DNA of 64,000 bases from Alloascoidea hylecoeti (GCA_001600815.1 BCKZ01000010.1:327527-391526), one strand, 5' to 3'; counted from the first letter of the stretch, positions 7,973-63,756 are shown. The notes: generated by a model from the sequence alone, not told the origin. Program-made: numbers and translations.

Positions 7973-8992
7973 ATGTCAACCTCAATACAAAATTGCTTGA
8001 AAAATCCCCCACTTGAACAAATAAATAGCCCTCTTACAGCTGCCAGCCATTATATTCATACCTGGATTTCATTATACTCTTCAAATATCAAATTAAATAA
8101 ACCCGAATCAATTCTCTCTTCTAGTTTAATTGTTTTAAACTATTTCAATGGCATATCAATCACTTTATCAATCATACGTGGAACACGAGTATCAATAGTT
8201 TTAACTCTTGATGATTCCTCTGAATCTTTGTTAATACCACTTGATGAATTGATTAATGAAGGTGAATTATCAAAAGATGGAAAACCTGTGGATATTGAAA
8301 AGTTATATACCAAAAATGTTGAAAATATTGATAGAAAATTGTTATCAAAATTTGGTTCTTTACTAACAGGGATAAATAATGAGTTTACTAATCCCTCTAA
8401 TGTTAGAGATATTAATGAAGAAGAAGATGTGGTTTTATCTAAAATTAACAAACCAAGTTTGGATTTGCCATCCACAAGTAATTCAACCCAAACTTCTCAA
8501 ACTTATGATGATATGCCTCAATTCGAGAACTATGATAGGGTTCCTGAAAACAATTTTCATATTCCAACAAGTTTAAGAAGTGATAGAGATGAAAGATTTC
8601 CTTCTATCGGTGATAATGATCTGAACCCACCAGGTGTTCCAACAAACCCATCAATGACACCTTTTCATCCTTTAGGTGGTTATCCAAATCAAACCCCTAA
8701 CGGTATGATTCCTGGCCCTGATCATCCAATTTTTGGTGCAGGAGCTCCTTCTTCTAATCGGTATATTAGACATGATCCACCTTTTCCTGATTCAGAAGAC
8801 TGGAGTGGTGCAAGAATCCCAGATGGCTCTAATGGGTTGGGAGGAATTGGTCCAGCTCAAGGAAGAGGACCACCTGGATTTGGCGGTCCTGGATTTGGCG
8901 GTCCTGGATTTGGTGGTCCTGGATTTGGTGGATCTGGATTTGGTGGGTCTGGATCTGGATTTGGAGGTCCTGGAATGGGTGGGTTTATTTAA
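7973..8992 (+). CDS. FUB1: PI31-family proteasome regulator (FUB1-like)
   Basis: Pro/Gly-rich C-terminal half with IGDNDLNPPG, GMIPGPDHPIFG and RHDPPFP motifs, GGPGF repeats and a C-terminal GFI (HbYX-like) end. Confidence 0.75.
   Translation: MSTSIQNCLKNPPLEQINSPLTAASHYIHTWISLYSSNIKLNKPESILSSSLIVLNYFNGISITLSIIRGTRVSIVLTLDDSSESLLIPLDELINEGELSKDGKPVDIEKLYTKNVENIDRKLLSKFGSLLTGINNEFTNPSNVRDINEEEDVVLSKINKPSLDLPSTSNSTQTSQTYDDMPQFENYDRVPENNFHIPTSLRSDRDERFPSIGDNDLNPPGVPTNPSMTPFHPLGGYPNQTPNGMIPGPDHPIFGAGAPSSNRYIRHDPPFPDSEDWSGARIPDGSNGLGGIGPAQGRGPPGFGGPGFGGPGFGGPGFGGSGFGGSGSGFGGPGMGGFI
8873..8974 (+). repeat. 15-bp coding tandem repeat (PGFGG)n
   Basis: cctggatttggcggt-type units repeated about 6 times with degeneration. 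Confidence 0.85.
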
Positions 8993-9567
8993 ATCTATTT
9001 GGCATGTGTTGCTTTACAAAATGCTTATGATCTGATGACTGAAACAAGAAACCATTTTTCTTGGTGATTATATAAACGTATACGTATAATATATTTATTA
9101 AATATTTGGTGATTTTAAATGATAATTTGAACTAAATCTATTAAAGGTTATGAATATTCAGTATTAATATGAAATATGCAGGGAATTCCTCTTTGCTGGT
9201 TGATCAATCAGAATTGAGAACACCTGCATAACCATATCTTATAATTATGAATACATATTAACATGGGCATGTTATTATATTCTAAAGGATTATTATTACT
9301 ATGCTAAAGATTTTTATACAATTAATATGCTATGCATATATATCAATAAAAAATAATTAAACTTGCAAGTCTCTCAAATATAAATTGATATAGTAGACTA
9401 TCAGGTGTATTTTTATAATCATTGTAAAGTAAATATATGCGTCGAAAATATTGAGACATTAGAACCAATCCATTTTATAACAAAGAGTATCAATTCTTCT
9501 CCAAAAACAAGGGGTATACATGTTAAGCATATAATTTGTAGGTCTAAACTATATAAAGTAGTTAGTA

Positions 9568-10352
9568 ATTTTAAATGGTTAGAGGAGAAACCGAGTTGTT
9601 CAAACTATGTCAACTATCAAGGGTGATCACACCTCGTCCTAATATAATTCTATTTTCACCAGAGATGATACCCAAAAGATATAACAAATCAACTAGATAT
9701 TTAGTAAATCCTTTGAAGTTCAGTACCAGAGACCATTGATGACAAATTCATACCATCATAGGAATGTCCAAATCATCTTTAAACACCTATAAGGGTTTAA
9801 TGGAATACCCTATAGCATATAGGATCCGGAAAGTTACAAAGGATATGATATTATTGATGATAATACGAAATTTGATTCTGAGGGCCCTTTAATATTGAAT
9901 GGCTTTAGTGATAGTAAACTTGGTTACAAAGAGGATACTAACAATTGGAATATGTGGATAGCCCACTACGATCCAAAAACGGATAAAACCATTTATGAAG
10001 GAGTTTTAAGCATTGAAATATCCTCCTTTACTTCTGATTTAGTTCCGAATTTTGCATCCTGTAACGTATCAAGATCTTATGATGTGGAATTTAGAATTGG
10101 GTTAAAACCTCAATTGAAAGTATCGAACATAAATATATTCAAAAGAACATTAAGGAAAATACAAGCTATTATAAGTGGTTCTAATACCAACAACAACAAT
10201 ATCGATCTAGTTGAATCAAAAATAATATTATAATTCATTTTATACAAACTTTGATTTGAGAGTCCCTTTTGACATCGTATTAAATGCAAGGGCTGATACT
10301 TCATTTCCGTATGCTTTTTAGGAAGACAAAATCTTGAATAGTTGTATATAAT
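9568..10352 (+). repeat. Copy 1 of a near-identical direct repeat (3' part of the Bul1/arrestin-like relic)
   Basis: Matches 13808-14644 except an 11-bp deletion, a 42-bp deletion, a 1-bp insertion and one substitution that I could see. The identical 112-aa ORF occurs in both copies. Confidence 0.95.
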
Positions 10353-11277
10353 TCTTGACTCAAATTATCTTCTCTTCTTACTCCTATTATTTTTTTTATT
10401 ATTATGTTTCACTTTCATCAAAATTTAAACAATCTTCTATTAGATTTTAATAATACCGATGTCCTCGTTAGTATTGATCATCTAGGTCTTAATAAACGTA
10501 TTAAATGAATCATCAATTAATATGGATTCTTTTAATCAAGAGTTTGAAAGTGAAGATAATTTCAATAATTAATTACAATTGCCACTATAACGATTATAAT
10601 CATATTGCAATTGAATTACCAATCAGCTACAAAGCTATTCTAATATTATTGCAACTATCAATGAAAAAGATGATTTAATGTCGTATAATTAATAAAATAA
10701 TATTAAATGGTATCGATGAGTATACCAATAAAGAATAAAGCTGTCATAACTAGCCTTATAAACGAATACGATACAAATGTATATTATTGCACTCTGCGAA
10801 TTGGCCTTAGTCCCAAGTTCAAAGATTATATATATCAACGAATTATATTATAAAAAGAGAAGTGCGCGGAAATTTTAGTCATACTTGACGATTTTATTTG
10901 TATTTTTCATAAAGGCCTAATCTATCCTAGGGGGCCATAATATTAGTATTAATATAATATGTGCTCTTTATTAAGTAAACTAGGTGGATTACGATCGGGT
11001 ATGGAAAAATATATATTCACAGGGTTGAATCCTAAACCTATATCTATAAAGTTATATCTTTTAATGAATTTTAATAATTTGGTGAAGGTCACAGAATGTG
11101 GCAGTATTCCGGCCGTAGTGGAAAGAAATTTTAAAGGCTATGCCAACAACTGATAATGACTTTGTAATATATTAATTAATGCTCACCATATAATATACCC
11201 TATCTGTAGCCGTAATATATTTCTTCTTCCATTTCCTCCTTATTTTAAATTAACCATTATTAACATCATCCATAATC

Positions 11278-11853
11278 ATGGGAAATTGTAACTCTAAACG
11301 AATCAAAGACGAGGGGGATCCACCACCTTACGATTGGAATAATCAGCCTGTATATGCATCTTCCAATAATGATTCACTGTCAACTCCAGCTCTAATCACT
11401 CCAACTGAAGTTAACAACGCAGTTTTCAGTATCAGAGCAGAATTATTGATTAAAAACAATCCGGGTGATTCTGAGAAATGGTCTGAGCCAAGAATCTGTA
11501 TCATAAAATTTATCAAAAATATAAATGGAACATGTTCTCTTAAAGCACTTGATATTAATACTTCAGAGGTTTTATTAAATCATTTTATAGCACCAGAATA
11601 TCAAGTTTCAACTGTCACTTCAGATTATTTTAAATTACACGAGTCTTCAAATTTAGATAATAACTGGGGTAGGTATCGAACTTATACAGTTACTAGAGAT
11701 TCTGACTTAAAAGGATTGAGCAATTTATTAGCCTTGAAAATTGGTTTAATTTTTGGATCTATAATGAACGGTGAAAATTTTAGAAAAGAATTCAAAAATC
11801 AACAAAAGGTAAATAAAAGGATTGAAGGTAGGAATAATTTTAAAGAATATTGA
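11278..11853 (+). CDS. Divergent RanBP1/Yrb1-like (PH-fold) domain protein with N-terminal acylation signal and PPPY motif
   Basis: Intact 191-aa ORF starting MGNCNSK, with DPPPYD. Segments VFSIRAELL, KFIKN, NHFIAPEY and FGSIMNGENFRKEFKNQQKVNK are colinear with remembered yeast Yrb1 segments LYKVRAKLF, KFLKN, NHIIAPEY and [22 protein letters not shown]. Confidence 0.7.
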   Translation: MGNCNSKRIKDEGDPPPYDWNNQPVYASSNNDSLSTPALITPTEVNNAVFSIRAELLIKNNPGDSEKWSEPRICIIKFIKNINGTCSLKALDINTSEVLLNHFIAPEYQVSTVTSDYFKLHESSNLDNNWGRYRTYTVTRDSDLKGLSNLLALKIGLIFGSIMNGENFRKEFKNQQKVNKRIEGRNNFKEY

Positions 11854-13083
11854 TGGTCATGATTAGATATATTTATTTTATTTCTAGATCCTGATAAATA
11901 ACTATTGATGTGACAATCAAATAGCTATAAGTGTATAATATAACTTATAATTACTAGTACTACATAGTATATTGAATAAAGTAAATTTCAGTGTCAGTAT
12001 AGAGTTATTGATTGATTAAAAATAATCCAGAGGACTCAGTTATTGGAGTCTAGAGTATGAAGCTTAAGTAACAAAAGTTTCTTCTAATTATTTCATTTAA
12101 TTTGATTCTTATAAGAGCCAGATAGAAATCGTGTTTCTGCACTCACCAGAAATTGTAACTTTAAGAAATGAAAGTCTTTGAATCAAAATGAAATGTTTAT
12201 AAATTATAATTATACATTTTATAAATATTAATATGATGTCAAAGAAGAGGAGAATTGGTCAACCAGTACAACGAATTCGACTTTCCCATTGCATTTTTTC
12301 CATCTACATAATATAACAAATAGACTTAAATATCCTTTAAAAATTTATAATTTAATCAATTCAATTCTTAACATATACAGGTTATCTCCATCTTTGTATA
12401 CATATGATAGAACACGATTTATTAAATTGACTTTTGAATCCTTAATTTTAAGATCTTAATTCTAATCCCTAATTTTACCTGCGACAAAGCAATGTTTACA
12501 TCAAAAGTCTTCAAAGACATCGATCCTCAACTAGCTCCAGCTAAACTTTTCAAGTCAGAGATCAACAAAACAAATTGTTTCAACTGATTCTACTAGTATT
12601 GTTACTTATAAATCGTAAATGGATACTTCACAACCTGCTATGGATCAAACTTTGTCTATCACCTTTGACTGTACTACTCATATAACTACATTACAGGTTG
12701 CTATTTCAACAATGCTTATTGACGACAAAACGAATAAAACTTATACCAGCGTGTGTGAAACTAATATTATATACCTTATTTTAGAGTTCGTAGTTATTAG
12801 GTTCTCTTAAGTAAATAAAACTCCCGAGTTGTTTTTATGTTTTCACAAATTGTTTGCTGCAAAATAAATTGTACAAGTTAAGCAGGACAATCAGCTATAT
12901 ATTAATCACGTTGACTGTTCACAACGAACAATGGAAATTATAATCTTTATTCTACTATTAGCCTAAGAATGATTCAGCGATTAAGAAATTGATATTAATA
13001 TAAGATATATTAATAATACAACGGTCTATCTAAGTATATACATATATTAAGCTTATATTTGAAATGAGGTGATCCTGAATTAG

Positions 13084-14525
13084 ATGATCGCTGGTGAAAG
13101 ATTAACCATTAATTCAAGGAATAACCATCTTTTTTTTTACATCACATCAGATATCGATGGGGGTAATGAATGTAAGTGTTATATACCCCAGTAGAATGTA
13201 CGAAAACGCAGGGACAAAGAGAATTTTACGAGATTGCGATAGTTCTTTATACATGCGTACTCTCCACATAACAAGACTTCACAGGAATCATCCCCGAATT
13301 TTGAATTAAAATTATCGCGTTCGAAAAAACTTTCTACAGAAACTGATGGTCACAATATTAGTATTGCTTTAGCTGGTAAGATATATAGGATACATTTTAG
13401 CTTTGTTATTCCAGAGAAATTATCGGAGCCATATCTTGATAACCAGCTTCATATACGTTTACCTCCCACTTTTAAGTTTAAATGGGATATGTAGATAGAG
13501 GCGAATTTATTAAAGTTAGCAACACTTATTATATTGAAGCCAGATTCGAAAATTATTCTACAGTTGCTGATCGGTTTGGAGAGACAGAACGAACCAGCCG
13601 AGTCAATAAAGGGAATTTTATTCCTTCAAAATAATCCCTTCATATCCTGTACTTTCCTCTTTCATGCTACAGTAATATCTCGATAAGACTGAATATATAT
13701 CGGCAGACGATATATATGATAATAAGAATTCAAACGATAGCATGAAATTTAAAAATACTCACTTCATAGATTCTAAAACAGGACAGTTATATTATATTTA
13801 TATAAACATTTTAAATGGTTAGAGGAGAAACCGAGTTGTTCGATCAGGAATCAAACTATGTCAACTATCAAGGTGATCACACCTCGTCCTAATATAATTC
13901 TATTTTCACCAGAGATGATACCCAAAAGATATTATGACCTTTCTTTGAAATATAAAGTTGATCAGAAAAGATATAACAAATCAACTAAATATTTAGTAAA
14001 TCCTTTGAAGTTCAGTACCAGAGACCATTGATGACAAATTCATACCATCATAGGAATGTCCAAATCATCTTTAAACACCTATAAGGGTTTAATGGAATAC
14101 CCTATAGCATATAGGATCCGGAAAGTTACAAAGGATATGATATTATTGATGATAATACGAAATTTGATTCTGAGGGCCCTTTAATATTGAATGGCTTTAG
14201 TGATAGTAAACTTGGTTACAAAGAGGATACTAACAATTGGAATATGTGGATAGCCCACTACGATCCAAAAACGGATAAAACCATTTATGAAGGAGTTTTA
14301 AGCATTGAAATATCCTCCTTTACTTCTGATTTAGTTCCGAATTTTGCATCCTGTAACGTATCAAGATCTTATGATGTGGAATTTAGAATTGGGTTAAAAC
14401 CTCAATTGAAAGTATCGAACATAAATATATTCAAAAGAACATTAAGGAAAATACAAGCTATTATAAGTGGTTCTAATACCAACAACAACAATATCGATCT
14501 AGTTGAATCAAAAATAATATTATAA
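13084..14525 (+). pseudogene. Decayed Bul1/alpha-arrestin-like gene
   Basis: Fragments AGKIYRIHFSFVIPEKLSEPYLDNQLHIRLPPTF (13372-13473; Bul1_N-like Y..F.F.IP..L......H..LPP[ST]F), FKIIPSY (linker, shifted frame) and LVPNFASCNVSRSYDVEFRI (Bul1_C-like). Several in-frame stops and frameshifts. Boundaries approximate. Confidence 0.55.
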
Positions 14526-14644
14526 TTCATTTTATACAAACTTTGATTTGAGAGTCCCTTTTGACATCGTATTAAATGCAAGGGCTGATACTTCATTTCC
14601 GTATGCTTTTTAGGAAGACAAAATCTTGAATAGTTGTATATAAT
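13808..14644 (+). repeat. Copy 2 (longer) of the direct repeat
   Basis: 837 bp versus 785 bp for copy 1; the difference of 52 equals 42+11-1. Confidence 0.95.
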
Positions 14645-15937
14645 CCAAACTATGATCATTGAAATATGAAACGATTGGTTATCTGAATGTGCTATGATCA
14701 TCTTTATTATATGTTGTTATATCGATATAGGTAACGGTGTTATGTTGTAGTAATGTTAGATTTGTGATCGAAGTTACATTTAAATGTCTGATTTATAGTA
14801 TGTGTAATTTTTTGTTGCATGGAATATTAATTATAAGATCCCCACAACCACTATAATTTATACAACAAACTACGACCTCCCTTAATTCCAGTCTATACGA
14901 TAATATTTACAAACTCAGACTTCTTTATGTCATAAATATTTTAAGGTTCCAAGGCCTAGCTAGCTCGACTTTCGGCCTATTTTCTCTGACCTAGATCATG
15001 TAGGTGTGGTGCCCGAAAAACGAAGTAAGTTTAATCTTGACTACAAGTGGAGAGATGAATACCCTCTATCAAGAATAATCAATAACTAATCCAAAAAAGA
15101 AGAGTTCTCTCCAATGATATCACGACTCTTCTTTTCTTCTTATCTGGTAACTTCTGATCAAAACCATAAATGAATTCTATGGGAATATACTCTAGTGAAA
15201 ATGCTTTTTTTACAAAGTACTAAAGTAGTATCATATATGACAAAAATTATCAATTAATATAAAAAAATGTAAATGATACTATAATAGTTAATCTTTTTTA
15301 GGTGTATTATGATCAATAATAAAATTTTAGTAGATAAACGAGAGAAAAACGATCAAAGTTGAAGAATAAAAGTTGAAGAATAAAAGTTGAATAAAAAGAG
15401 GGGAAAAAAAAGAGAGGCCTATATTTAATGAATAATAACTAGATTTTAAGAAAAAAAATCTAAAAGATATCTTGAGGAAAGATATACTTGACAATCACTA
15501 TATACAAATAAAATAAAATAGAATAATAAAAATAAGTATAAACATAAAGTAACAAACCATATAAATAAACATAAACATTCAATAATTGAAATTGAAAATT
15601 ATTAAATGATTATTATTTATGAAATGTTATTTGTAAGTTTGTTAAAAAAAAAAAAAAAAAAGAAGATTTTTAAATGGATTGATTAGCTCAAGTATAAAAA
15701 AACTCATGTGTTAAAAATAATTCAATTGCAAAGATTGCAAAAGTATTAAATGAACAAATAACACAATGTATTTACAATATAAATAAATTATATTCAAAGG
15801 GGAGGCAAATTTCAACTATAATTTTAAAGCAATAGAAAAAAGTGTAGAAAGAATGAATAGCATAGATGTAAAATTTAAAGCTAGTATGAAGAAAAAAAAA
15901 AAAAAAAGATATTTTGAGATGATTAAAAGTGAAAAGG

Positions 15938-16462
15938 TTAATTCAAATCATCCAAAGAATTAACCAATTTTTCAATAGATTGAATATTTTTTCCTAAAGT
16001 TGGAGCTAAAATAGTTTCATCTTTCCCACTTGAATCATTAGTTACATCAATTATTTCGGGAGGATTTAAATCATTTAAATATTTTAAATATAATTTAACA
16101 TTAAAAACTAATTCATTTCTTTTTTTAGTTTTTGTATTTTCAATTAATTTTTGCATTACATAATTTGCAAATTGATCATTAATTAATTCAATTAATGGCA
16201 TTGATAAATTTAATTCAATTTCTTCATCATTATTATATTGTATAAAAACATTATCATTTAAATTTTTCCTTTTTAATACAGTATCAATAATTTTTTCTCG
16301 ATCATCATTTGTACCATAAATTATACATTTTTCAACAACATTTGAAGCATATTTATGTTTTGAAAAATTTAAGATTGATTTTAAAACAATATTTGTAATT
16401 GTTTTAACTTCATCTTTTTCAATTTCAATTTCAATTTCATTTTCATTTTTATTTTCATTAAT

Positions 16463-16494
<32 letters not shown>

Positions 16495-18322
16495 GAATAA
16501 TATGTTGAATAACATAATTACCAAATTGATCTTGAATTAAATAAAATATAAATTTCATTAATTCATTTAATATTTCAATTTTAATATCAATTGTTGAAAA
16601 TTCTAATAATCTTTGTATAACTCTACAACCATAAGAATGAGTTGCTAATTTATAATAATGACCTTTTAAAAAAAAATGAATAAATTTTAAATTTTCAAAT
16701 GGTAATTTTTCAATTAATTTTTGTATAACATGATTACCATTTTGATCTAATACTAAGGTCATTATATCATCTTTATTATTTAATTCTTTTATAATTTTTA
16801 AAATTGATTGAATTGATAAATATTCAATTGATTTTTGAATAACTCGACATCCATACATTTGTAATGATAATTCTTTAATTTTTCCAAACATTTCATTTAA
16901 TAATTTTAATTTAATTTCTTCTGGAGCAAATTGAAAAAATTTTTGAATTATATAATTTCCAAATACATCAATCATTAATTTTGATATATCATTTGATAAT
17001 TCATTATATAAAATTGTAATATCTTTTGGAGATGCATTTGTTAATTCTTGTTGAATAAATCTTGAACCATGTTGATCATAACTAAATTCAACGAAAAAAC
17101 CTTTAAAATCCATTAATTTATAATTTTTATTTTTCATATTACTACGAAATTCTTCTAATTTTGGACTTCTATAAATATGTTTTGCATTTTTAGAATTTTT
17201 TTTAGATTTATTTCGAATTGTTTCAGGAGTTTTATCATTATCATCTTTTTGTTTTTTATTGTTATTTTTCTTAGCCATCATTATAATTTCTGAATTTTTC
17301 TTTTCACTTTCTTTTTGTTGTTGTTGTTGTTGTTGTTGCTGCTGTTGTGCTAAAGGAGTGAAAGAAGGGGCAAATGGTTTAATTTGTTGTCTTCCGGGAG
17401 TTGAATTATTATTATTTGTAGTATTTGGAAATTGAAAATGATTCATATTTAAACCAACATGACCAGGGAAAGGGGATATTGGAGGCATAATATTAAAACC
17501 TGAATAAGCTCCAGTTGTAACAGGTGTATAAGGAGTTGAATTCATAGGTTTAAAATCTAAATCATCTTCACCATCACTAATAGCAAATTCCGTATTATTG
17601 TTATAGATTTCAGAAGTTGACATTCCAAATAATCTAGCTGATTGTAACCAATTTGGAGATTTATAAGTCTGTTGTTCTCTTGTTGAAGTTGGTAAAAAAG
17701 GATTAAAAGTATTTGTATTTGTGTTTGTATTTGAATTATTAGGTATAAAACTGCCACTACTAATATCAGAGGAGAAAGAGGATCTTGAAGCTGGCTCAGT
17801 AAACGAAAAAGCATGTTGATTTGAGAGCTGGTTTGAATGTTGATTTATCATATCATATGAACTAACTGGGGCTAAAGTTGCTTTTGAAATGGTCGAGCTA
17901 TTTGTGAGTTGGGATTTAAAAGAATCAGAAGAAGAAGAACCGGTTGAAGTACCAGTTATGTTTAACTCTTCAATTAACGAACGTCTACGGATTCTTTCTG
18001 AAGGAGTTGAATTTGTTTTCGTAGACATAAATTCCACGTCTTTCGTTGCCTCCACTAGGCTTGAAAACCGGTCCAGGAAGCCCCTTCCGCCGGTGGTCGT
18101 GCCGGCAGTGGTGCCAAACGACACGCCGCCTCCCGAGGCAGCCAGGAAGCGGTCCGCACCCAGCAGCGGATTGCTGACCGAACTCAAGCTGGAGAAAAGA
18201 GAGTTGTCGATGGACTGGGAAGCTGTGTAGGGGACGTCCATATACCCGGAGATGGTGACGGAGCCGTTGACGGAGCCGTCGATGGCGGTGATGGAGCCGT
18301 GGCGGGAGGTCGGCAGGGACAT
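15938..18322 (-). CDS. PUF3: Pumilio-family RNA-binding protein Puf3
   Basis: RSPKLEEFR leader, then eight PUF repeats with recognition helices SRFIQ, NYIIQ, CRVIQ, NHVIQ, CRVIQ, NYVIQ, SNVVE, NYVMQ (canonical Puf3/Pumilio set). Low-complexity N-terminus with polyQ. Confidence 0.9.
16463..16492. repeat. (TGA)10 microsatellite encoding poly-Ser inside the PUF domain
   Basis: Direct reading; lies between PUF repeats 6 and 7. Confidence 0.9.
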
Positions 18323-18915
18323 CGCACTGGAGGGTGGTGGGACTGAGGTTCTGATGGGGGCCCAAATGGGAGCCCAAATAGGGTCGGAGAGAGAGCCGAC
18401 AGCTGGAAACAGGCAGGGTTAGCAGGGTTCAACGCAGATTATACGTGGCTCAGAACATACACAATCGGTGCGACTCGTCCGCTTGAAATTGGTCTGAGAA
18501 GCCGGCGGACATGGAGAATCGAAGGGAAATGGGAATTAAGGTGACGTGAAGTAAAACCAAGTAGCAGCGCTGGTGTCAAGTGGTGTGTGGCGCAATGGCA
18601 CGGCCCAGCACCTCAAATGGCACACGCGCACACGCTCCCAAACGGCCGCCCCGAAGTGCGGGCAGGCGGCACGCCACATGAAGTGGCAAACACCCGCACA
18701 CCCCTCCCTAGGCGTCATTTCCAAAAAAGTCCAATTCTCCTCTCCCAAATTTGCTGTTTATTTGCGCTGTTTTAACCGGCTCTGCGACTATTTTCCATTT
18801 TGTGTGACGTTTCTTCTGGTTTTGGCCCTTCGGAGTGGATAAAACCACCATTTCAGCCTCCAAAACGTCTTTTTGACCTTCTCAAACCTTGAAATCGTCC
18901 AGAATATCCATAAAA
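18323..18915. promoter_or_regulatory. GC-rich bidirectional promoter region between PUF3 and KNS1
   Basis: About 590 bp between divergent ATGs; visibly much more GC-rich than any other intergenic region in the window. Confidence 0.65.
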
Positions 18916-23041: not shown

Positions 23042-25201
23042 TTAAAAAATAGAGACAACGGCACAGCTTACTACACTTATAATTATGCTTAAAACTCTAT
23101 TTTTAAAGGTCAAGGATGAGGCAGAGGAGGACGATTTTGTGGCAATTGTAAATAATGAGCTCGAGGAATATGAAGTTGTAAAGGTTTTAACTGAACTTGT
23201 AGTAGTTGAGATCGAGGTAGAAGATAAATAAGTTGTAGTTGTAGATAAAATTGAGGAAGAAGAAGCCGTTGAAGCAGAGGATATAGAAGATGTGGTTTCA
23301 ATTGGAGTAGTGATTAATGAGCTCGAGGTAGATGTAGATGTTTCAACTGTACTCGTAGTAGTTGAGATCGAGGCAGAAGAAGAAGAAGAAGTTGTGGTTT
23401 CAAATAAAATAGATGACACAGAAGACGTAGTTTCAATTGAGATAGAAGGGGGTGTATACGTCGAAGAAGATGTGGTATCAATTGAAGTAGTAAATAATGA
23501 GCTCGAGGTAGAAGATGTAAAAGTTTCAATTGTACTTGTAGTAGTTGGGATTGAGATAGAAGAAGTTATGGTTGCAAATAAAATAGATGTAGTTTCAATT
23601 GGAGTGGTAGTAGAAGAGTAAGTAGATGTGGTTTCAACTAGGGTGGTAGTAACAGAAGAAGTAGATGTAGTTTCAATTGTACTTGTAGTAGTTGGGATTG
23701 AGATAGAAGAAGTTATGGTTGCAAATAAAATAGATGTAGTTTCAATTGGAGTGGTAGTAGAAGAGTAAGTAGATGTGGTTTCAACTAGGGTGGTAGTAAC
23801 AGAAGAAGTAGATGTAGTTTCAATTGTACTTGTAGTAGTTGGGATTGAGATAGAAGAAGTTATGGTTGCAAATAAAATAGATGTAGTTTCAATTGGAGTG
23901 GTAGTAGAAGAGTAAGTAGATGTGGTTTCAACTAGGGTGGTAGTAACAGAAGAAGTAGATGTAGTATATGTATTATCTGATTTTTGACTTGGAGAACCAA
24001 GAATTTCAATATCAGCAGATGATCCAAATTTAGCCTGTGCCAAAGATATTTTATAATTATCCAAATCAAAGAGAGCATATGCACTTCTAAGGAAGGAATC
24101 ACCCAAAACAACTCTATCATTATGTGAATTAAAAATTGCAAGTACATTAATCTGTTCACCATTAACGATATATGGAGTCCCATCAGTTAATTTCGTAGGA
24201 ATCAAAAAGTTATCAATTGGAACCTTTATTGAAAGACTATTGAAGTTGAATAGTAAGTTGTCTACCTTTAAAGCTGATTTTGTGACTATGTAATTAGCTA
24301 AGTGATTATCATATGTGGCACCTAGGGATGTGACGAAATTTTGAAAGACTCCGGTAGGGACGTATAAACCAGTAGTTCCAGAATCAACGACAGCATATGT
24401 GGAGCTATCTAAGATATTGTTTCCATTATCAAATGCATTAATGGAATCAATTTGAACTTGTAAATGGCTTCTTACAGTTTGACCAGGAACTGGGACAACA
24501 TCCAATTCAACCAAAGATCCTTCATATTTCCCATGATCAATTGCACCAAATAAAAGTGTTCCTGTTGAATCACTTGGACCATTTAAAAAGATTGAAAATG
24601 CTTTTACATTAATAAGACCATTATCAACCAATGATGAAACTAAATTGGGATATTTTTGAGGTGCTGATTCAAGATCAGGAAATCCAAGACCCAAAATTCC
24701 CTTGGCACCATTCACATTTGTTGCAACTCCAAATTGAAAATTATTTAATGTAGCAGAACCAATTGAAAGAGTATCAGTAACCCAATCTCCTGTTGCCTTG
24801 ACTCCTCCTACAAACCTAGCATTAAAATCCAAGTTTAGTTTATTATAACTTGATGAAGAATCGGTATTAAAAGTTCCGTAGTCATTTGAGCCATGGTTAT
24901 TGCTTCCAATAACCCAAGTATCAGATGATCCAGTATCAATGGATAACCTTACCTTCTGTGAAGAAGATCCAAGTTCAACCGTAGCAGCATAAAAGTTATT
25001 TTCATTTTCTAAGATAATACCCATTGAATTTCTCTTATATTTGGAAAATGCAAATTCATCATTAACGTCCAAAAGTTTTTCTTTTTTAAATGTAAGAGAA
25101 ATCGGCTCTTGTTGATTAGTTGATAGATATGCACCTTTATCACAATTGACAATTGGAAAAAAAGAAATAAAGCTTACTGCAAGCTTAAATGATAATTTCA
25201 T
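23042..25201 (-). CDS. Secreted, probably GPI-anchored aspartic protease (yapsin/SAP-like)
   Basis: Signal peptide, KR pro-site, catalytic DTGSSD and DSGTT, GILGLG, LGDSFLRSAY, Ser/Thr-rich stalk and hydrophobic C-terminal tail. Confidence 0.92.
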   Translation of the reverse strand: MKLSFKLAVSFISFFPIVNCDKGAYLSTNQQEPISLTFKKEKLLDVNDEFAFSKYKRNSMGIILENENNFYAATVELGSSSQKVRLSIDTGSSDTWVIGSNNHGSNDYGTFNTDSSSSYNKLNLDFNARFVGGVKATGDWVTDTLSIGSATLNNFQFGVATNVNGAKGILGLGFPDLESAPQKYPNLVSSLVDNGLINVKAFSIFLNGPSDSTGTLLFGAIDHGKYEGSLVELDVVPVPGQTVRSHLQVQIDSINAFDNGNNILDSSTYAVVDSGTTGLYVPTGVFQNFVTSLGATYDNHLANYIVTKSALKVDNLLFNFNSLSIKVPIDNFLIPTKLTDGTPYIVNGEQINVLAIFNSHNDRVVLGDSFLRSAYALFDLDNYKISLAQAKFGSSADIEILGSPSQKSDNTYTTSTSSVTTTLVETTSTYSSTTTPIETTSILFATITSSISIPTTTSTIETTSTSSVTTTLVETTSTYSSTTTPIETTSILFATITSSISIPTTTSTIETTSTSSVTTTLVETTSTYSSTTTPIETTSILFATITSSISIPTTTSTIETFTSSTSSSLFTTSIDTTSSSTYTPPSISIETTSSVSSILFETTTSSSSSASISTTTSTVETSTSTSSSLITTPIETTSSISSASTASSSSILSTTTTYLSSTSISTTTSSVKTFTTSYSSSSLFTIATKSSSSASSLTFKNRVLSIIISVVSCAVVSIF
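23523..23965 (-). repeat. Three 147-bp (49-aa) coding tandem repeats in the protease stalk
   Basis: Unit starts at 23523, 23670 and 23817 (period 147); copies look identical. Unit TTSTSSVTTTLVETTSTYSSTTTPIETTSILFATITSSISIPTTTSTIE. Confidence 0.95.
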
Positions 25202-50491: not shown

Positions 50492-51082
50492 ATGTCTACT
50501 TCAAATTTAGCACCAATTGTTTCCAGAAGATCTATCTACAATCTTGAGTCTACTTCTAAGGTCTCAAAAGCCCAAATTGAATCAATTGTTAAAACAATTG
50601 TTAAGAATACACCAACACCTTTCAATATTCAATCGGTTCGTGCTTTGATCCTAACTGAAGAAAAGGCTACTGCATTATGGTCTTCTGTTATTAGTCAAGC
50701 ATCCTCCACTCCAAATTACCCAATTCCTGTTTCAAAATTCGAAATCTTCAAAAAGGCCCATGGTACGGTTATCTTCTTTGATGATTTGAAACCAGTCAAT
50801 GGATTGACCCAAAATGCCCCTGAAATCTTTACTCAACAAGTTCCCATTTGGGCGGCTAATTCCAATGGATTCGCTCAGATTTCCACCTGGACAGAATTTG
50901 AACGCGAAGGACTTGGTGCTAATTTACAACATTATAATGATTTTGTTTCAAAAGCTATTAAGGATTTAGGATTTAAAGTTCCGGAAGATTGGGAAGTTAG
51001 AGCTGAATTAGTTTTTGGGGATGTTGGATCTCCAGCGGCTGCAAAGACCTTTACAGAAGAGGAAACTGTTCTTGTTTTGTAA
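50492..51082 (+). CDS. Nitroreductase, Frm2/Hbn1 family (copy 1)
   Basis: RRSIYNL, PTPFNIQSVRA, GTVIFFDD, GLGANLQHYN and AELVFG motifs. Confidence 0.9.
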   Translation: MSTSNLAPIVSRRSIYNLESTSKVSKAQIESIVKTIVKNTPTPFNIQSVRALILTEEKATALWSSVISQASSTPNYPIPVSKFEIFKKAHGTVIFFDDLKPVNGLTQNAPEIFTQQVPIWAANSNGFAQISTWTEFEREGLGANLQHYNDFVSKAIKDLGFKVPEDWEVRAELVFGDVGSPAAAKTFTEEETVLVL

Positions 51083-53748: not shown

Positions 53749-54339
53749 TCACAAAACAAGAACAGTTTCCTCTTCTATAAAGGTCTTTGCAGCCGCTGGA
53801 GATCCAACATCCCCAAAAACTAATTCAGCTCTAACTTCCCAATCTTCCGGAACTTTAAATCCTAAATCCTTAATAGCTTTTGAAACAAAATCATTATAAT
53901 GTTGTAAATTAGCACCAAGTCCTTCGCGTTCAAATTCTGTCCAGGTGGAAATTTGAGCGAATCCATTGGAATTAGCCGCCCAAATGGGAACTTGTTGAGT
54001 AAAGATTTCAGGGGCATTTTGGGTCAATCCAGTGACTGGTTTCAAATCATCAAAGAAGATAACCGTACCATAGGCATTTTTGAACACATCGAATCTTGAA
54101 ACAGGAACTGGAAAATTTGGAGTGGAGGTTACTTGACTAATAACATTGGTCCATAACGCTTCGGATTTGTCTGCAGTTAAAACCAAGGCACGAACTGATT
54201 GAATATTGAAAGGTGTTGGTGTATTCTTAACAATTGTTTTAACAATTGATTCAATTTGGGCTTTTGGGACCTTAGAAGTAGACTTAAGCTGGTAGATGGA
54301 TCTTCTGGAAACAATTGGTGCTAAAATTGAAGTAGACAT
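53749..54339 (-). CDS. Nitroreductase, Frm2/Hbn1 family (copy 2, inverted relative to copy 1)
   Basis: Same motifs; the 3' half is nearly identical in DNA to copy 1. Confidence 0.9.
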   Translation of the reverse strand: MSTSILAPIVSRRSIYQLKSTSKVPKAQIESIVKTIVKNTPTPFNIQSVRALVLTADKSEALWTNVISQVTSTPNFPVPVSRFDVFKNAYGTVIFFDDLKPVTGLTQNAPEIFTQQVPIWAANSNGFAQISTWTEFEREGLGANLQHYNDFVSKAIKDLGFKVPEDWEVRAELVFGDVGSPAAAKTFIEEETVLVL

Positions 54340-59722: not shown

Positions 59723-60313
59723 ATGTCTACTTCGTTCTTAACCCCAATTCTCAACAGAAGAAGTATTTACAATCTGAAGTCTACCTCAAAATTATCAAAA
59801 ACTGAAATTGAATCAATTGTTAGATCAATCGTTATAAACGCTCCAACTTCTTTCAACATCCAATCGGTTCGTGCTTTGATCCTAACTGAAGAAAAGGCCA
59901 GTGCATTATGGTCTTCTGTTATCAGTCAAGTATCCTCCACTCCAAATTACCCGGTTCCTGTTTCAAAATTCGAAAGGTTCAAAAATGCCTATGGCACGGT
60001 TATCTTCTTTGATGATTTGAAACCAATCAATGAATTGACCCAAAAATCCAACAGAATCTTTACTGAACAAGTTCCCATTTGGGCGGCTAATTCCAATGGA
60101 TTCGCTCAAATTTCGATCTGGTCAGCATTGGAAAGTGAAGGACTCGGTGCCAATTTACAACATTACAATGATTTTGTTTCAAAAGCTATTAAGGATTTAG
60201 GATTTAAAGTTCCAGAATATTGGGTTGTTAGAGCTGAATTAGTTTTTGGCGATGTTGAATCTCCACCAGGTGATAAAACTTTTATTAAAGAAGAATCCGT
60301 GATTGTTTTGTAA
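59723..60313 (+). CDS. Nitroreductase, Frm2/Hbn1 family (copy 3, most divergent)
   Basis: RRSIYNL, PTSFNIQSVRA and GLGANLQHYN motifs; 196 aa like the other two. Confidence 0.9.
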   Translation: MSTSFLTPILNRRSIYNLKSTSKLSKTEIESIVRSIVINAPTSFNIQSVRALILTEEKASALWSSVISQVSSTPNYPVPVSKFERFKNAYGTVIFFDDLKPINELTQKSNRIFTEQVPIWAANSNGFAQISIWSALESEGLGANLQHYNDFVSKAIKDLGFKVPEYWVVRAELVFGDVESPPGDKTFIKEESVIVL

Positions 60314-60403: not shown

Positions 60404-62017
60404 TTATTCATCAACATTTCCAATCGCTTTAGCTAATTCAGCCAATTCGGTTGCATTATGAGAATCTAATAAAGAAATATCATCCCATTCAGGAGCGCTA
60501 AACCCATTCAACATGTAATATTTTGGAACACAACTACAATGTTTAAAACCAACGTCATTTAATTCATTTTCACATAAACATTGGTTTGTCAATTGTGTGT
60601 TTAAATCATGTGGACAAGTATAAAAAGGGCTATGAAAATAACCAATATCATCGAAATAATGAAGTTCACTTCTTTTTAAAAAGATAGAAGCAGCTATTGA
60701 ATGAACAGGCGCATCTCCCCATCTTTCGTAAAAGAATCCTCCGGCTTGATCTAAATAATTGAAATAATCTTGATATTGTTTTGATCTCCAAAAATCCAAA
60801 TCTGCAACTTCAAAATTTGACCAAAAATGACATAAACTATATGAATCCCCATCATCATCAGTCATTAAACGAAATAAGTTACCTTTTTCATTGTCATTAT
60901 TATCAAACCCATGAGACGAAGAAGATTTTAATTCATCTAAATAATGAGGATAATATGCTGATAGAAACTCTTTTGTAGTTTTCCATAATGTTGGAATTGT
61001 TTCTGGAATTTCTAATAATAACATTGTAAAACCATATTTTTTCTTATTTTCATTCATAAATTTAAAAATATCATATTTTAAAGAACAAAATATTTTAACA
61101 TTTGGTTCAATTCTCCAATAGTATTTAAATTGATTCATTAATGGATGTCTCCAAAAAAACCCCGATTGATATCTGCACATATGTCTATAAGAAACTGAAC
61201 CACCATATTTTATACCATTACTTTCCATTTTAAAGATACTTTTTTTGATTTTGTTTTCATCTAACCATTCAGGATATGACCACTGAGATGTTGGTACTTT
61301 ACCATAATATACTTGGCCTGAACATAATGAAGCAGTTTTTAATTTGAATTCTGGTGTAAAATCTTTATCATTTAAAAAAACCCATGAATAATGAAAATTA
61401 TGGTTAAATCGATCTTCAATTATTTGTATTGAAGATAATATAGCATCAAGTTCTGAGTTTCGAACTAATGAAACAAATGTAGCATTTTCTCTAAAGTTGT
61501 ATGAATCATAACTAGTGTCATTACTTGCAATAAAATCAGCCTCTTTTAATGGAATTAATGTTTGTGTACCATCTTTATTTGTTTTTAGTTTAAATTCTGG
61601 GGCATTATATACCATTTTTGATGAATTCATTAATGCTTGCTTTTTTTCTATTATTTCATTAAATTGTTTTTCATATTTCTGGTTGGTTTCTTGAATATCA
61701 GCTAAAGATTTATCATCGTTGTCATTTTTAACATCGATACCATTTTTTAAAAATTCCAGTGATGATTCGATTTTTTTATTTATTCCTTCTTCCCATTCAT
61801 TCAATTTAAGTAGATCGTCACCATCAAAAGCTGTATCCTCAAGAAGTGAACTTTGTGATGAAGGTATATTTTTTATATCCGTTGATTGTGAATCTGAAGA
61901 GGAACTTGTAGAAGAATATGTGAGTATTAATGCTATTATTATTAGTAATAAAAGTGTTGATAAAGTTCTAGTTGATGAGTGGCTACCGACACGATTTATG
62001 GACCTAACTCTAACCAT
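60404..62017 (-). CDS. GT15 alpha-1,2-mannosyltransferase (KRE2/MNT1/KTR family)
   Basis: Type II anchor and stem; RENATFVSLVRN, SYRHMCRYQSGFF, YYWRIEP, CHFWSNFEVADL and GGFFYERWGDAPVHSIA motifs. Confidence 0.93.
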   Translation of the reverse strand: MVRVRSINRVGSHSSTRTLSTLLLLIIIALILTYSSTSSSSDSQSTDIKNIPSSQSSLLEDTAFDGDDLLKLNEWEEGINKKIESSLEFLKNGIDVKNDNDDKSLADIQETNQKYEKQFNEIIEKKQALMNSSKMVYNAPEFKLKTNKDGTQTLIPLKEADFIASNDTSYDSYNFRENATFVSLVRNSELDAILSSIQIIEDRFNHNFHYSWVFLNDKDFTPEFKLKTASLCSGQVYYGKVPTSQWSYPEWLDENKIKKSIFKMESNGIKYGGSVSYRHMCRYQSGFFWRHPLMNQFKYYWRIEPNVKIFCSLKYDIFKFMNENKKKYGFTMLLLEIPETIPTLWKTTKEFLSAYYPHYLDELKSSSSHGFDNNDNEKGNLFRLMTDDDGDSYSLCHFWSNFEVADLDFWRSKQYQDYFNYLDQAGGFFYERWGDAPVHSIAASIFLKRSELHYFDDIGYFHSPFYTCPHDLNTQLTNQCLCENELNDVGFKHCSCVPKYYMLNGFSAPEWDDISLLDSHNATELAELAKAIGNVDE

Positions 62018-62316: not shown

Positions 62317-63756
62317 CTATTTATTAACTCCAGGAACATTATAGTTATTTATCTCATAATATTTCGGAACACAGCTAAAGTCAGTAAAAGCGATATCCTT
62401 ATTTGCTGAATCACATAAACAGTTATTCTCCAATTTTATCGCCGGATCTCTTGGACATGTAAACATCGGTGGATGGTAGTAACCAAAATCAGTAAAATAG
62501 TGAACCTCATCTCGTTTTAAAAAAATAGAAGCGGCTATTGAATGAACAGGCGCATCTCCCCATCGTTCATAAAAAAATCCACCTGCTTTATCTAAATAGT
62601 TGAAATATTCCTGATATTGTTTAGATCTCCAAAAATCCAAATCTGCAACTTCAAAATTTGACCAAAAATGACATAAATTGAAAGAACGTCCATTATCATC
62701 CGATATAAATTGTAATAAATTATCAAAATTTTGAGGATTTTTTAAATAATCTGGATAATTTGACATCAAAAATTCTCTTGTTGTTCTCCATAAAGTTTTA
62801 ATTGTTTGTGGATATTCTAATATTGAAATTGTAAAACTATATTTTTTCTTAAATTCTCTCATAAATTTAAAAATATCATATTTCAAATCACAATAAATTT
62901 TAACGTTTGGTTCAACTCTCCAATAATATTTAAATTGATTCATTAATGGATGTCTCCAAAAAAATCCTGACTGGTATCTACACATATGCCTATATGATAA
63001 TGAATCACCATAAATAACACCAGCACCTGTCATTTTTTTCATACAACTTTTAACCTTAGGTTTATCTAACCAGTCTGGTATACTCCATTCACTTGATTTG
63101 TCTATTTTCCCATAAAATACTTGTCCGGAACATAATGTCGCAGTTCTTAATTTAAATTCTGATGTGAATGGCTCATCGTTTAAAAAAACCCATGGATAGT
63201 GGAAATTCTTATTGAATCGATCTTCAAATATCCTTATTGATGATAATATTGAATCAAGCTCTGAATTCCTGACTAAAGAAACAAATGTAGCATTTTCTCT
63301 TGTTGTAAAATCCACATTGATACTATTAGTACTATTACTGTCATCTGTATCAAACAATGGAACAAATTTTGATGAACCATCATTATTTATAGATAATCTA
63401 TATTCAGGTGTATTATATTTAATCAAAAAATCTTTTTGTTTTAATTTCAAAACTTTCTCAAATTCTTTTTCATACCGTTGTTCTAATAAAAGTTCCAACT
63501 CCTCTTTTTCAACATCAGACATGTCTTTTAACCTTATTTCATCTTCTTTCTTTTTATTTGTTAAGTATTTCCATTTTAATAGTTCACTCTGAACCATATT
63601 ATATTCTGAAAGGTCTTTGGTTGTACCTGATGAACCATTAACAGCATAATAAATTGTTGTTATTATGATGAAAATAATCGATATGAAGAATAATGAAAAG
63701 AGTAGTTGATAGCATTTGTTCGCCTGAGGACGATGTGAAGATCTCACCCTAACCAT
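62317..63756 (-). CDS. GT15 alpha-1,2-mannosyltransferase (KRE2/MNT1/KTR family), tandem paralogue
   Basis: Same GT15 motifs; both paralogues begin MVRVRS. Confidence 0.93.
   Translation of the reverse strand: MVRVRSSHRPQANKCYQLLFSLFFISIIFIIITTIYYAVNGSSGTTKDLSEYNMVQSELLKWKYLTNKKKEDEIRLKDMSDVEKEELELLLEQRYEKEFEKVLKLKQKDFLIKYNTPEYRLSINNDGSSKFVPLFDTDDSNSTNSINVDFTTRENATFVSLVRNSELDSILSSIRIFEDRFNKNFHYPWVFLNDEPFTSEFKLRTATLCSGQVFYGKIDKSSEWSIPDWLDKPKVKSCMKKMTGAGVIYGDSLSYRHMCRYQSGFFWRHPLMNQFKYYWRVEPNVKIYCDLKYDIFKFMREFKKKYSFTISILEYPQTIKTLWRTTREFLMSNYPDYLKNPQNFDNLLQFISDDNGRSFNLCHFWSNFEVADLDFWRSKQYQEYFNYLDKAGGFFYERWGDAPVHSIAASIFLKRDEVHYFTDFGYYHPPMFTCPRDPAIKLENNCLCDSANKDIAFTDFSCVPKYYEINNYNVPGVNK

Follow-up and report, generated by a model that had tools for sequence, protein, structure and literature searches.

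Genes and features at the locus

The window considered here is a stretch of 64,000 nucleotides from Alloascoidea hylecoeti (GCA_001600815.1 BCKZ01000010.1:327527-391526); all positions are counted from its first letter. Our subject is an intact open reading frame (ORF) on the plus strand, at 11278..11853, that encodes 191 amino acids plus a stop codon. The product belongs to one branch, subfamily A, of a lineage-restricted family derived from the Ran-binding domain (RanBD). No other ORF of at least 150 amino acids occurs in the interval 8992-15938. Note that an in-frame stop codon is found eight codons 5' of the ATG. Hence, barring splicing of an upstream exon, Met-Gly is the N-terminus of the protein. 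The N-terminal sequence is MGNCNSKRIKDEGDPPPY, so numbered that M1 G2 N3 C4 N5 S6 K7 are followed by P15 P16 P17 Y18. This agrees with the initial annotation, which had described an intact 191-residue ORF that starts MGNCNSK and has PPPY at residues 15-18. The GC content of the ORF is 0.31, and 0.22 at third codon positions (GC3), where 17 large neighbouring ORFs range from 0.15 to 0.30. In GC and GC3 the ORF is therefore within the range of the genes around it. There is a single CTG codon, at residue 34, in a variable linker.

The protein can be divided into two parts, all features being on the plus strand. The N-terminal part starts with MGNCNSK (residues 1-7; 11278..11298), which on direct reading fits the N-myristoylation consensus and includes Cys4, a candidate palmitoylation site. 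DPPPY (residues 14-18; 11317..11331) is a PPxY (PY) motif, such as the WW domains of Rsp5/Nedd4 ligases bind. Next comes the linker, rich in Ser, Asn and Thr (residues 19-46; 11332..11415), where the predicted local distance difference test (pLDDT) score is below 50. Residues 47-185 (11416..11832) form the second part, a RanBD-derived domain with a predicted pleckstrin homology (PH)-like fold, recognized with phmmer, hhalign, an AlphaFold2 model and Foldseek.

Sequence similarity to Yrb1-type Ran-binding domains

In a phmmer search of all PDB chains, residues 43-181 of the ORF product matched seven distinct Yrb1 sequences, with E values from 4.8e-6 to 8e-6. The eighth and last match, at E 0.86, is noise. 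By tblastn, the canonical Yrb1-like protein P0009 aligns with the ORF at 30% identity over 171 amino acids. When a 13-row alignment of the family was compared, using hhalign, with 45 Yrb1 orthologues, the probability was 97.5%, with E 5e-12 over 121 columns. The resemblance to RanBDs therefore exceeds what chance would give. The initial annotation had proposed a domain colinear with Yrb1/RanBP1, and these searches bear it out. Blocks of Yrb1 still present in the ORF are RA (first strand), W..E, NH.IAPEY and, within the final helix, FG..N...F..EF..Q..NK. NHFIAPEY (residues 101-108; 11578..11601) is the best-kept block in alignments to Yrb1, and the helix block reads FGS..NGENFRKEF..QQKVNK (residues 159-180). 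In the Pfam check suggested at the outset, Ran_BP1 (PF00638) aligns with residues 44-115 at E 0.032 but scores 15 bits, below the cut-off of 23.2. The paralogue P0003 has a precomputed PF00638 match.

We also modelled the fold. An AlphaFold2 model built from a 118-row alignment, in which 106 rows are Yrb1 orthologues, had a mean pLDDT of 64.6. Values were 84-91 in blocks 71-110, 89-92 in blocks 161-180, and below 50 for residues 1-45. The model has seven predicted strands and a C-terminal helix (residues 162-185). The best Foldseek matches in the PDB were Yrb1/RanBP1 chains (E 4.6e-7; template modelling score, by target, 0.70-0.75), although this match is partly circular because the alignment is mostly Yrb1. 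RanBP2 RanBDs came next, and then EVH1 domains. We conclude that it is the sequence statistics, and not the fold match, that secure descent from a Yrb1-type RanBD.

A small gene family with two branches

A word-indexed search found three relatives of the ORF product among 66 candidates: P0001 (99% identity), P0002 (82%) and P0003 (64%). An exhaustive profile search of 1.84 billion representatives returned 11 proteins at E <=0.001, and five of these are family members (P0001 and P0004-P0007). The other six are not. One is the Yrb1-like protein P0009 and the remaining five are proteins of 1400-4074 amino acids with 3-5 matched stretches. A search with an 8-row profile gave 11 proteins among 1632 candidates, all belonging to the family. 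In total, with the window ORF, the family has 13 sequences in two subfamilies. Subfamily A (n=6) consists of the window ORF, P0001, P0002, P0003 and the fragments P0004 and P0017. Subfamily B (n=7) consists of P0005, P0006, P0007, P0014, P0015, P0016 and P0018, which are 30-41% identical to the ORF. Metagenome scans, with queries from each subfamily, found no relatives, and tblastn of the 64-kb window found no paralogue of the ORF.

When five family rows were placed in a tree alongside 44 Yrb1 orthologues, they grouped together, with a Shimodaira-Hasegawa-like approximate likelihood ratio (SH-aLRT) of 99. At 2.6 + 7.4 changes per column, compared with a median of 0.16 for the end branches of Yrb1, the branch to the family is too long for its point of origin within the Yrb1 tree to be told. 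Together, the sequences make up a small, fast-evolving and lineage-restricted family, known to date from this organism alone. The initial annotation had described a YRB1-derived duplicate. Descent of the domain from a Yrb1-type RanBD stands, but the ORF is not a lone duplicate; it is one of 13 related sequences, a good number of which are truncated.

Paralogues within one organism and rough estimates of selection

The stretch is contained in four DNA runs. Two may be its source, one (X4) is a second sample, or strain, of the same organism, and one (X3) is a wood-decay metagenome. We compared X3 and X4 over 10200-13950, where both cover 30 of 30 bins. Contig depth rises about threefold over 11334-11711 only, to 28-34 in X3 (flanks 8.7-12) and to 17-22.5 in X4 (flanks 8.4-11). 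Extra contigs match this segment at 88-91% and do not match the flanks. Loose contig ends carry sequence of the P0003 type (NSKPTNDKGN) and of the subfamily-B type (LDEDYVYQRY). Hence, the additional depth, and the loose ends from other members, indicate that the relatives are paralogues in one organism, with unlike flanks.

Contigs covering 11416-11602 and 11574-11851 differ from the window, and all 13 of the non-synonymous differences listed equal residues of P0002. The ratio of non-synonymous to synonymous rates (dN/dS, or omega) was estimated by taking the contig totals, of 17 and 27 differences, and subtracting the minimum number of non-synonymous changes implied by P0002. For codons 47-108, this gives 11 non-synonymous and six synonymous differences, and for codons 100-191 it gives 12 and 15. 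The corresponding values of omega, rough and relative to the 82% paralogue, are ~0.44 and ~0.16. Neutral dN/dS, together with a lack of expression, had been named in advance as an outcome that would count against the gene, and these rough values of 0.16-0.44 differ from it. Roughly estimated, then, the ORF seems to be under purifying selection.

Motifs that contact Ran are altered and an insertion is gained

PMC3045386 describes three classes of contact between RanBDs and Ran. First, there is an N-terminal extension with the sequence HFEPVV. Second, the C-terminal tail of Ran meets basic residues of the RanBD. Third, the EWKER motif makes salt bridges to the effector loop. All are altered in the ORF. 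No His-Phe is found ahead of strand 1, where the region reads SLSTPALITPTEVNN. The basic Yrb1 stretch LMRRDKTLK is replaced by ALDINTSEV (MRRDKTLK by ALDINTSE), and the Trp of Yrb1 SWVY is Tyr. In the phmmer alignment, Yrb1 'WKERGTG' lies opposite 'WSEPRIC' of the ORF, so that EWKERGxGD becomes KWSEPRICI. The replacement of WKERG by WSEPR, read from the sequence at the outset, is thus reproduced and the RanBD signature is degenerate. KWSEP (residues 67-71; 11476..11490), at the position of the effector-loop-binding EWKER in alignments to Yrb1, is present in the window ORF and all other subfamily-A members; the subfamily-B equivalent is KWS[ND]P, and EWKER itself is found in neither. More broadly, the ORF keeps 22 of 71 near-invariant RanBD positions (those at least 90% conserved among 45 Yrb1 orthologues), and the paralogues keep between 16 and 25.

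In the same source (PMC3045386), the weak Ran binding of RanBP3 is ascribed to milder substitutions (SWVER). Since every published contact class is altered in the ORF, and milder changes leave RanBP3 weak, we infer that high-affinity binding of Ran-GTP has been lost or deeply changed.

The domain has also gained sequence. Relative to Yrb1, the ORF has ~17 extra residues between APEY and FGS, consistent with the insertion ahead of the last strands that had been described earlier. The extra segment begins DYFKLHES (residues 116-123; 11623..11646), which the family alignment identifies as family-specific and which is absent from Yrb1. Residues F118, K119 and L120 are invariant in all eight aligned family members, from both subfamilies, and DYFKLP is invariant in the six subfamily-B rows. 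The DYFKL motif can be read as a YxxPhi-like form.

The N-terminal module

By the usual PROSITE-type rule, N-myristoylation calls for Met-Gly, a small uncharged residue at position 3, a Ser/Thr-type residue at position 6, and no Pro at position 7. The sequence MGNCNSK conforms (Gly2, Asn3, Ser6, Lys7) and the nearby Cys4 is a candidate site for palmitate. The five subfamily-A N-termini available are MGNCNSK (twice), MGNCCSS, MGGNNSK and MGSYNSK, each then followed by D.G.DPPPY. Hence, MG, Ser6, DPPPY and agreement with the myristoylation rule are found in 5/5, while whole-protein identities fall as low as 64%. Cys4 is kept in only three of the five, so palmitoylation is not a family feature; the initial annotation had called an adjacent Cys typically palmitoylated. 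A Cys beside a myristoyl-Gly is a usual place for palmitoylation, as in RNF11 (PMC7697665). PPxY is a ligand for Rsp5/Nedd4 WW domains (PMC2171029 and PMC7697665).

PPPY (residues 15-18) is in a segment with pLDDT below 50 in the 118-row model and is therefore probably disordered. Measured against P0003, 13 of 19 columns are identical over residues 1-18, and 14 of 29 over the linker (residues 19-46). In subfamily B, none of the seven models has an MG start or PPPY. Note that two of these begin within strand 1 (MRAE.. and MRAK..), so their real starts are uncertain. The module predicted initially is therefore retained in one branch of the family, with Gly2, Ser6 and DPPPY in each subfamily-A N-terminus, but the second subfamily is without it.

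A speculative origin for the module is remodelling of Yrb1's own N-terminal segment. In a combined alignment, of low complexity and not reliable here, MGNC.. is placed over 'MFGGKK', a conserved block of Yrb1, and DPPPY falls close to 'EEPDVHFEP'. The distance to strand 1 is similar, 46 residues in the ORF and 50 in Yrb1. An atlas search with residues 1-46 gave no usable match.

Comparison with known proteins

The nearest reference is Yrb1/RanBP1 (PF00638) itself. The ORF shares with it a colinear domain, the same predicted PH-like fold, and ~30% identity to a canonical Yrb1-like protein. It differs at the N-terminus, which is acidic and FG-like in Yrb1 but reads MGNCNSK...DPPPY in the ORF, and in the ~17-residue insertion with its new conserved DYFKLP motif. 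Weak RanBDs, of the RanBP3/Yrb2 type, similarly have degenerate EWKER and HFEPVV motifs and low affinity for Ran (PMC3045386). However, they keep most G-domain and linker contacts and still act in nuclear export, whereas the ORF protein has diverged much further and bears membrane and PY signals.

The architecture as a whole was not recognised from any described family when first noted. Full-text literature, subscription journals being outside the coverage, likewise held no description of a lipid-anchored RanBD or a YRB1-derived family. The N-terminal module does, however, have a close known analogue in RNF11, an animal RING-H2 protein. According to PMC7697665, RNF11 is myristoylated at Gly2, palmitoylated at Cys4, and has a PPxY motif bound by WW domains of NEDD4-family HECT ligases; it is found at endosomal/Golgi membranes. 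The same text portrays RNF11 as a substrate, adaptor or inhibitor of NEDD4-family ligases, and as probably ubiquitinated by Rsp5 in yeast. Gly2, Cys4 and PPPY occur in the same order in the ORF protein. The differences are that Pfam gives no RING match for the ORF, even with E values of 10 allowed, its sole match being the weak one to Ran_BP1, and that Cys4 is not conserved in the yeast family. Since the two have no sequence homology, the resemblance is convergent. RNF11 is thus an analogue of the ORF protein and not a fellow member of its family.

We know of no yeast PY-motif Rsp5 adaptor that is lipid-anchored and has a RanBD, and the literature searches gave none. Those described (ARTs/Bul1, Sna3, Rcr1 and Ear1/Ssh4, among others) are similar in using PPxY to recruit Rsp5 to membranes (PMC2171029, PMC7401822 and PMC9282857) but are arrestin-fold or transmembrane proteins. 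The late-domain proteins arenavirus Z and retroviral Gag also combine a myristoylated Gly2 with PPPY, recruiting Nedd4-family ligases for budding. These are viral, with other folds, and no sign of a viral or retroelement context was seen at the ORF. A role in sorting or budding, by likeness to arenavirus Z, would be a bolder variant of the reading below.

Interpretation and alternatives

Very probably, in our view, the ORF is a genuine gene under constraint and derives from a RanBD. That its product is lipid-anchored and binds Rsp5 is a closer call, on which we are evenly divided. YRB1 gave rise to a very fast-evolving, lineage-restricted family that kept the predicted RanBD fold and lost the motifs that hold Ran-GTP. 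A short, probably disordered N-terminus has been built ahead of the domain. The following mechanism is proposed. In the mature protein, the initiator Met would be removed and Gly2 myristoylated; with Cys4 also palmitoylated in this paralogue, the protein could be fixed to a membrane, on its cytosolic side. PPPY, being exposed, might then dock the WW domains of the Nedd4-family ligase Rsp5. One option is that the protein serves as a membrane-resident recruiter of Rsp5, with the former RanBD and the new DYFKLP loop selecting a partner or cargo. Alternatively, the ORF product may itself be ubiquitinated and sorted. By analogy with the RNF11 N-terminus, we would put equal weight for and against a membrane-anchored protein that docks Rsp5 via PPPY and puts its former RanBD to use as a new module for binding. 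A role as an adaptor proper is possible but on balance unlikely. More doubtful still is a bolder scenario. Here, a young family was born from the essential Ran cofactor YRB1 and one branch built a viral-matrix-like, or RNF11-like, module (myristoyl-Gly and PPPY, with palmitoyl-Cys or without it) from the Yrb1 N-terminus. The product would recruit Rsp5 from a lipid anchor, or would act in vesicle sorting or budding, and would select its partner through the former GTPase-binding PH-like domain and the new DYFKLP loop.

Several observations weigh against this interpretation. Pfam Ran_BP1 is sub-threshold for the ORF. AlphaFold2, given the 4-row family-only alignment, returned pLDDT 40 and did not predict the fold, and the match obtained with the larger alignment has the circularity described above. 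Cys4 is absent from two of the five N-termini. Each family member is a single-sequence cluster, and the listed source is 'ncbi' for 11 of 11, that of P0004 not being listed. The relatives are probably from one species, so the conservation of motifs covers little evolutionary time. At least seven of the 12 database members (P0004, P0006, P0007 and P0015-P0018) are fragmentary or have internal deletions, and such truncated relatives fit a family in decay as well as they fit a family in use. There are no RNA runs among those listed as containing the stretch; two metatranscriptome runs compared with it yielded nothing, an outcome that says nothing about expression. The dN/dS values were built from difference totals rather than full paralogue DNA.

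Some of these observations would be expected if the ORF were a functionless, decaying duplicate, open by chance or youth, with N-terminal motifs that have no role. The truncated relatives, the extreme length of the family branch and the missing RNA runs all agree with decay, and the 7 kb around the gene contain pseudogene-like debris and a duplication of 785 bp. We nevertheless think this explanation improbable. Four full-length subfamily-A proteins, 64-99% identical, have open frames, and rough dN/dS is 0.16-0.44. In addition, residues 1-18 are better conserved than the linker in the comparison with P0003, and the Phe-Lys-Leu of the insertion is invariant across both subfamilies.

A gene in use could also be one that still binds Ran. 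The product would then be a lipid-anchored RanBD, capturing or regulating Ran-GTP at a membrane, and PPPY would serve for turnover only. The colinearity of the RanBD and its predicted fold are retained, as are Arg53-Ala54, Trp68, Glu70, Asn101-His102, Tyr108 and the helix motif FGS..F.KEF. Weak binding of Ran also persists in RanBDs whose EWKER is degenerate, RanBP3 among them (PMC3045386). Still, the three published contact classes are altered together (KWSEP, no HFEPVV, ALDINTSE) and 49 of the 71 near-invariant Yrb1 positions are changed. Hence, we rate retained Ran binding as quite improbable.

It is very unlikely that a mobile or selfish element carries the ORF as cargo or as one of its structural proteins, for instance a Gag- or matrix-like budding protein with flanking repeats as the element's ends. 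The idea draws on a multicopy family with fragments and on two direct repeats that bracket the gene, R1 (785 bp; 9568..10352, plus strand) and R2 (837 bp; 13808..14644, plus strand). These are 4.3 kb apart, start to start, and 99.85% identical over 679 nt. The first part is less alike, at 90.5% over 126 aligned columns (115 nt in R1 and 125 nt in R2), with two small insertions in R2. A myristoylated Gly2 with a PPPY late domain is also typical of arenavirus Z (PMC11658702 and PMC6163595). Inspection of the repeats did not favour this idea. They start TTTTAAATGG and finish TATATAAT, without TG..CA ends, and the five bases outside them differ (GTAAT and CCAAA), so there is no target-site duplication. 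Their depth, in two DNA runs, is ~2x that of the flanks, and hence there are two copies only. Between R1 and R2 there is no reverse transcriptase, integrase or other element ORF; the 191-residue gene is the sole long ORF. Furthermore, contigs of paralogues match the coding core, 11334-11711, and not the flanks. We therefore rejected a long terminal repeat (LTR) or mobile-element reading of R1/R2, which have no LTR ends. Least likely of all is an EVH1-like binder of proline peptides, for which PPPY would be its own (auto-inhibitory) or a partner's ligand: Foldseek matched the EVH1 domains of Homer and Mena, at E values between 3e-6 and 1e-4, and EVH1-type clusters came first, at 0.85, in an atlas feature search where EVH1 and RanBD clusters were on top at <=0.85 (a lead only), but a PH-like fold is common to RanBD and EVH1, the sequence homology indicates Yrb1, and the aromatic residue that EVH1 ligands (FPPPP, PPxxF) need is not conserved around PPPY in P0002.

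Significance

The ORF adds a new architecture to the RanBD family, and the lineage-restricted gene family to which it belongs had not been described before. RanBDs are usually regarded as soluble components of nuclear transport that are highly conserved. The lineage of the ORF has probably departed from this role and has multiplied, diverging beyond the differences among all sampled Saccharomycotina Yrb1 orthologues, and gained two short signals that point to membranes and Rsp5. If the signals work, this would be a compact natural case of short linear motifs re-purposing a housekeeping fold, and fungi would have a lipid-anchored PY protein of a new type. Were the bolder scenario true, a module targeting membranes and a ubiquitin ligase would have been assembled de novo on such a fold. 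If the signals fail, the family would be an ordinary, fast-decaying set of duplicates.

Genomic context

The 7-kb stretch that holds the ORF is gene-poor, with a PI31-like gene and a PUF gene on either side. Genes elsewhere in the window encode ZPR1, a tuberin/Rap-GAP protein, a kinase, an aspartyl protease, a thiolase, nitroreductases and Glyco_transf_15 mannosyltransferases. These neighbours are ordinary yeast genes, and the region is chromosome-internal in an AT-rich, budding-yeast-like genome.

R1 and R2 may have arisen by segmental duplication, and we describe them as context; they are not shown to be part of the gene. Each contains a 136-codon open frame with a weak match to Bul1_C (E 7e-4; 19.5 bits, the cut-off being 24.2). 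Bul1 is an arrestin-like Rsp5 adaptor, and any link between this sub-threshold match and Rsp5 biology may be coincidence. We also considered a longer arrestin-like pseudogene upstream of R2. This is not supported: of four open pieces scanned (13243-14522), only the repeat piece matches Bul1_C, weakly.

Other features of the window were also noted. A sharp GC island at ~18050-18720 reaches 58-63% GC in 200-nt windows, the region being otherwise 20-30%. It extends over the 5' end of the minus-strand PUF gene and the intergenic part before the kinase gene, and has no Rfam match. The aspartyl protease gene (23042-25201, minus strand) has 147-nt tandem repeats at 23174-23965, in the part coding for the C-terminal half; three identical 150-nt copies are accompanied by older ones. 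Three nitroreductase-family paralogues, each of 196 amino acids, are within 10 kb: 50492-51082 (plus), 53749-54339 (minus) and 59723-60313 (plus). The first two are an inverted pair with 92.7% nucleotide identity. Lastly, alpha-1,2-mannosyltransferases of the Glyco_transf_15 (KTR/MNT) type form a tandem pair, at 60404-62017 and 62317-63756 (both minus), with cores that are 79-89% identical.

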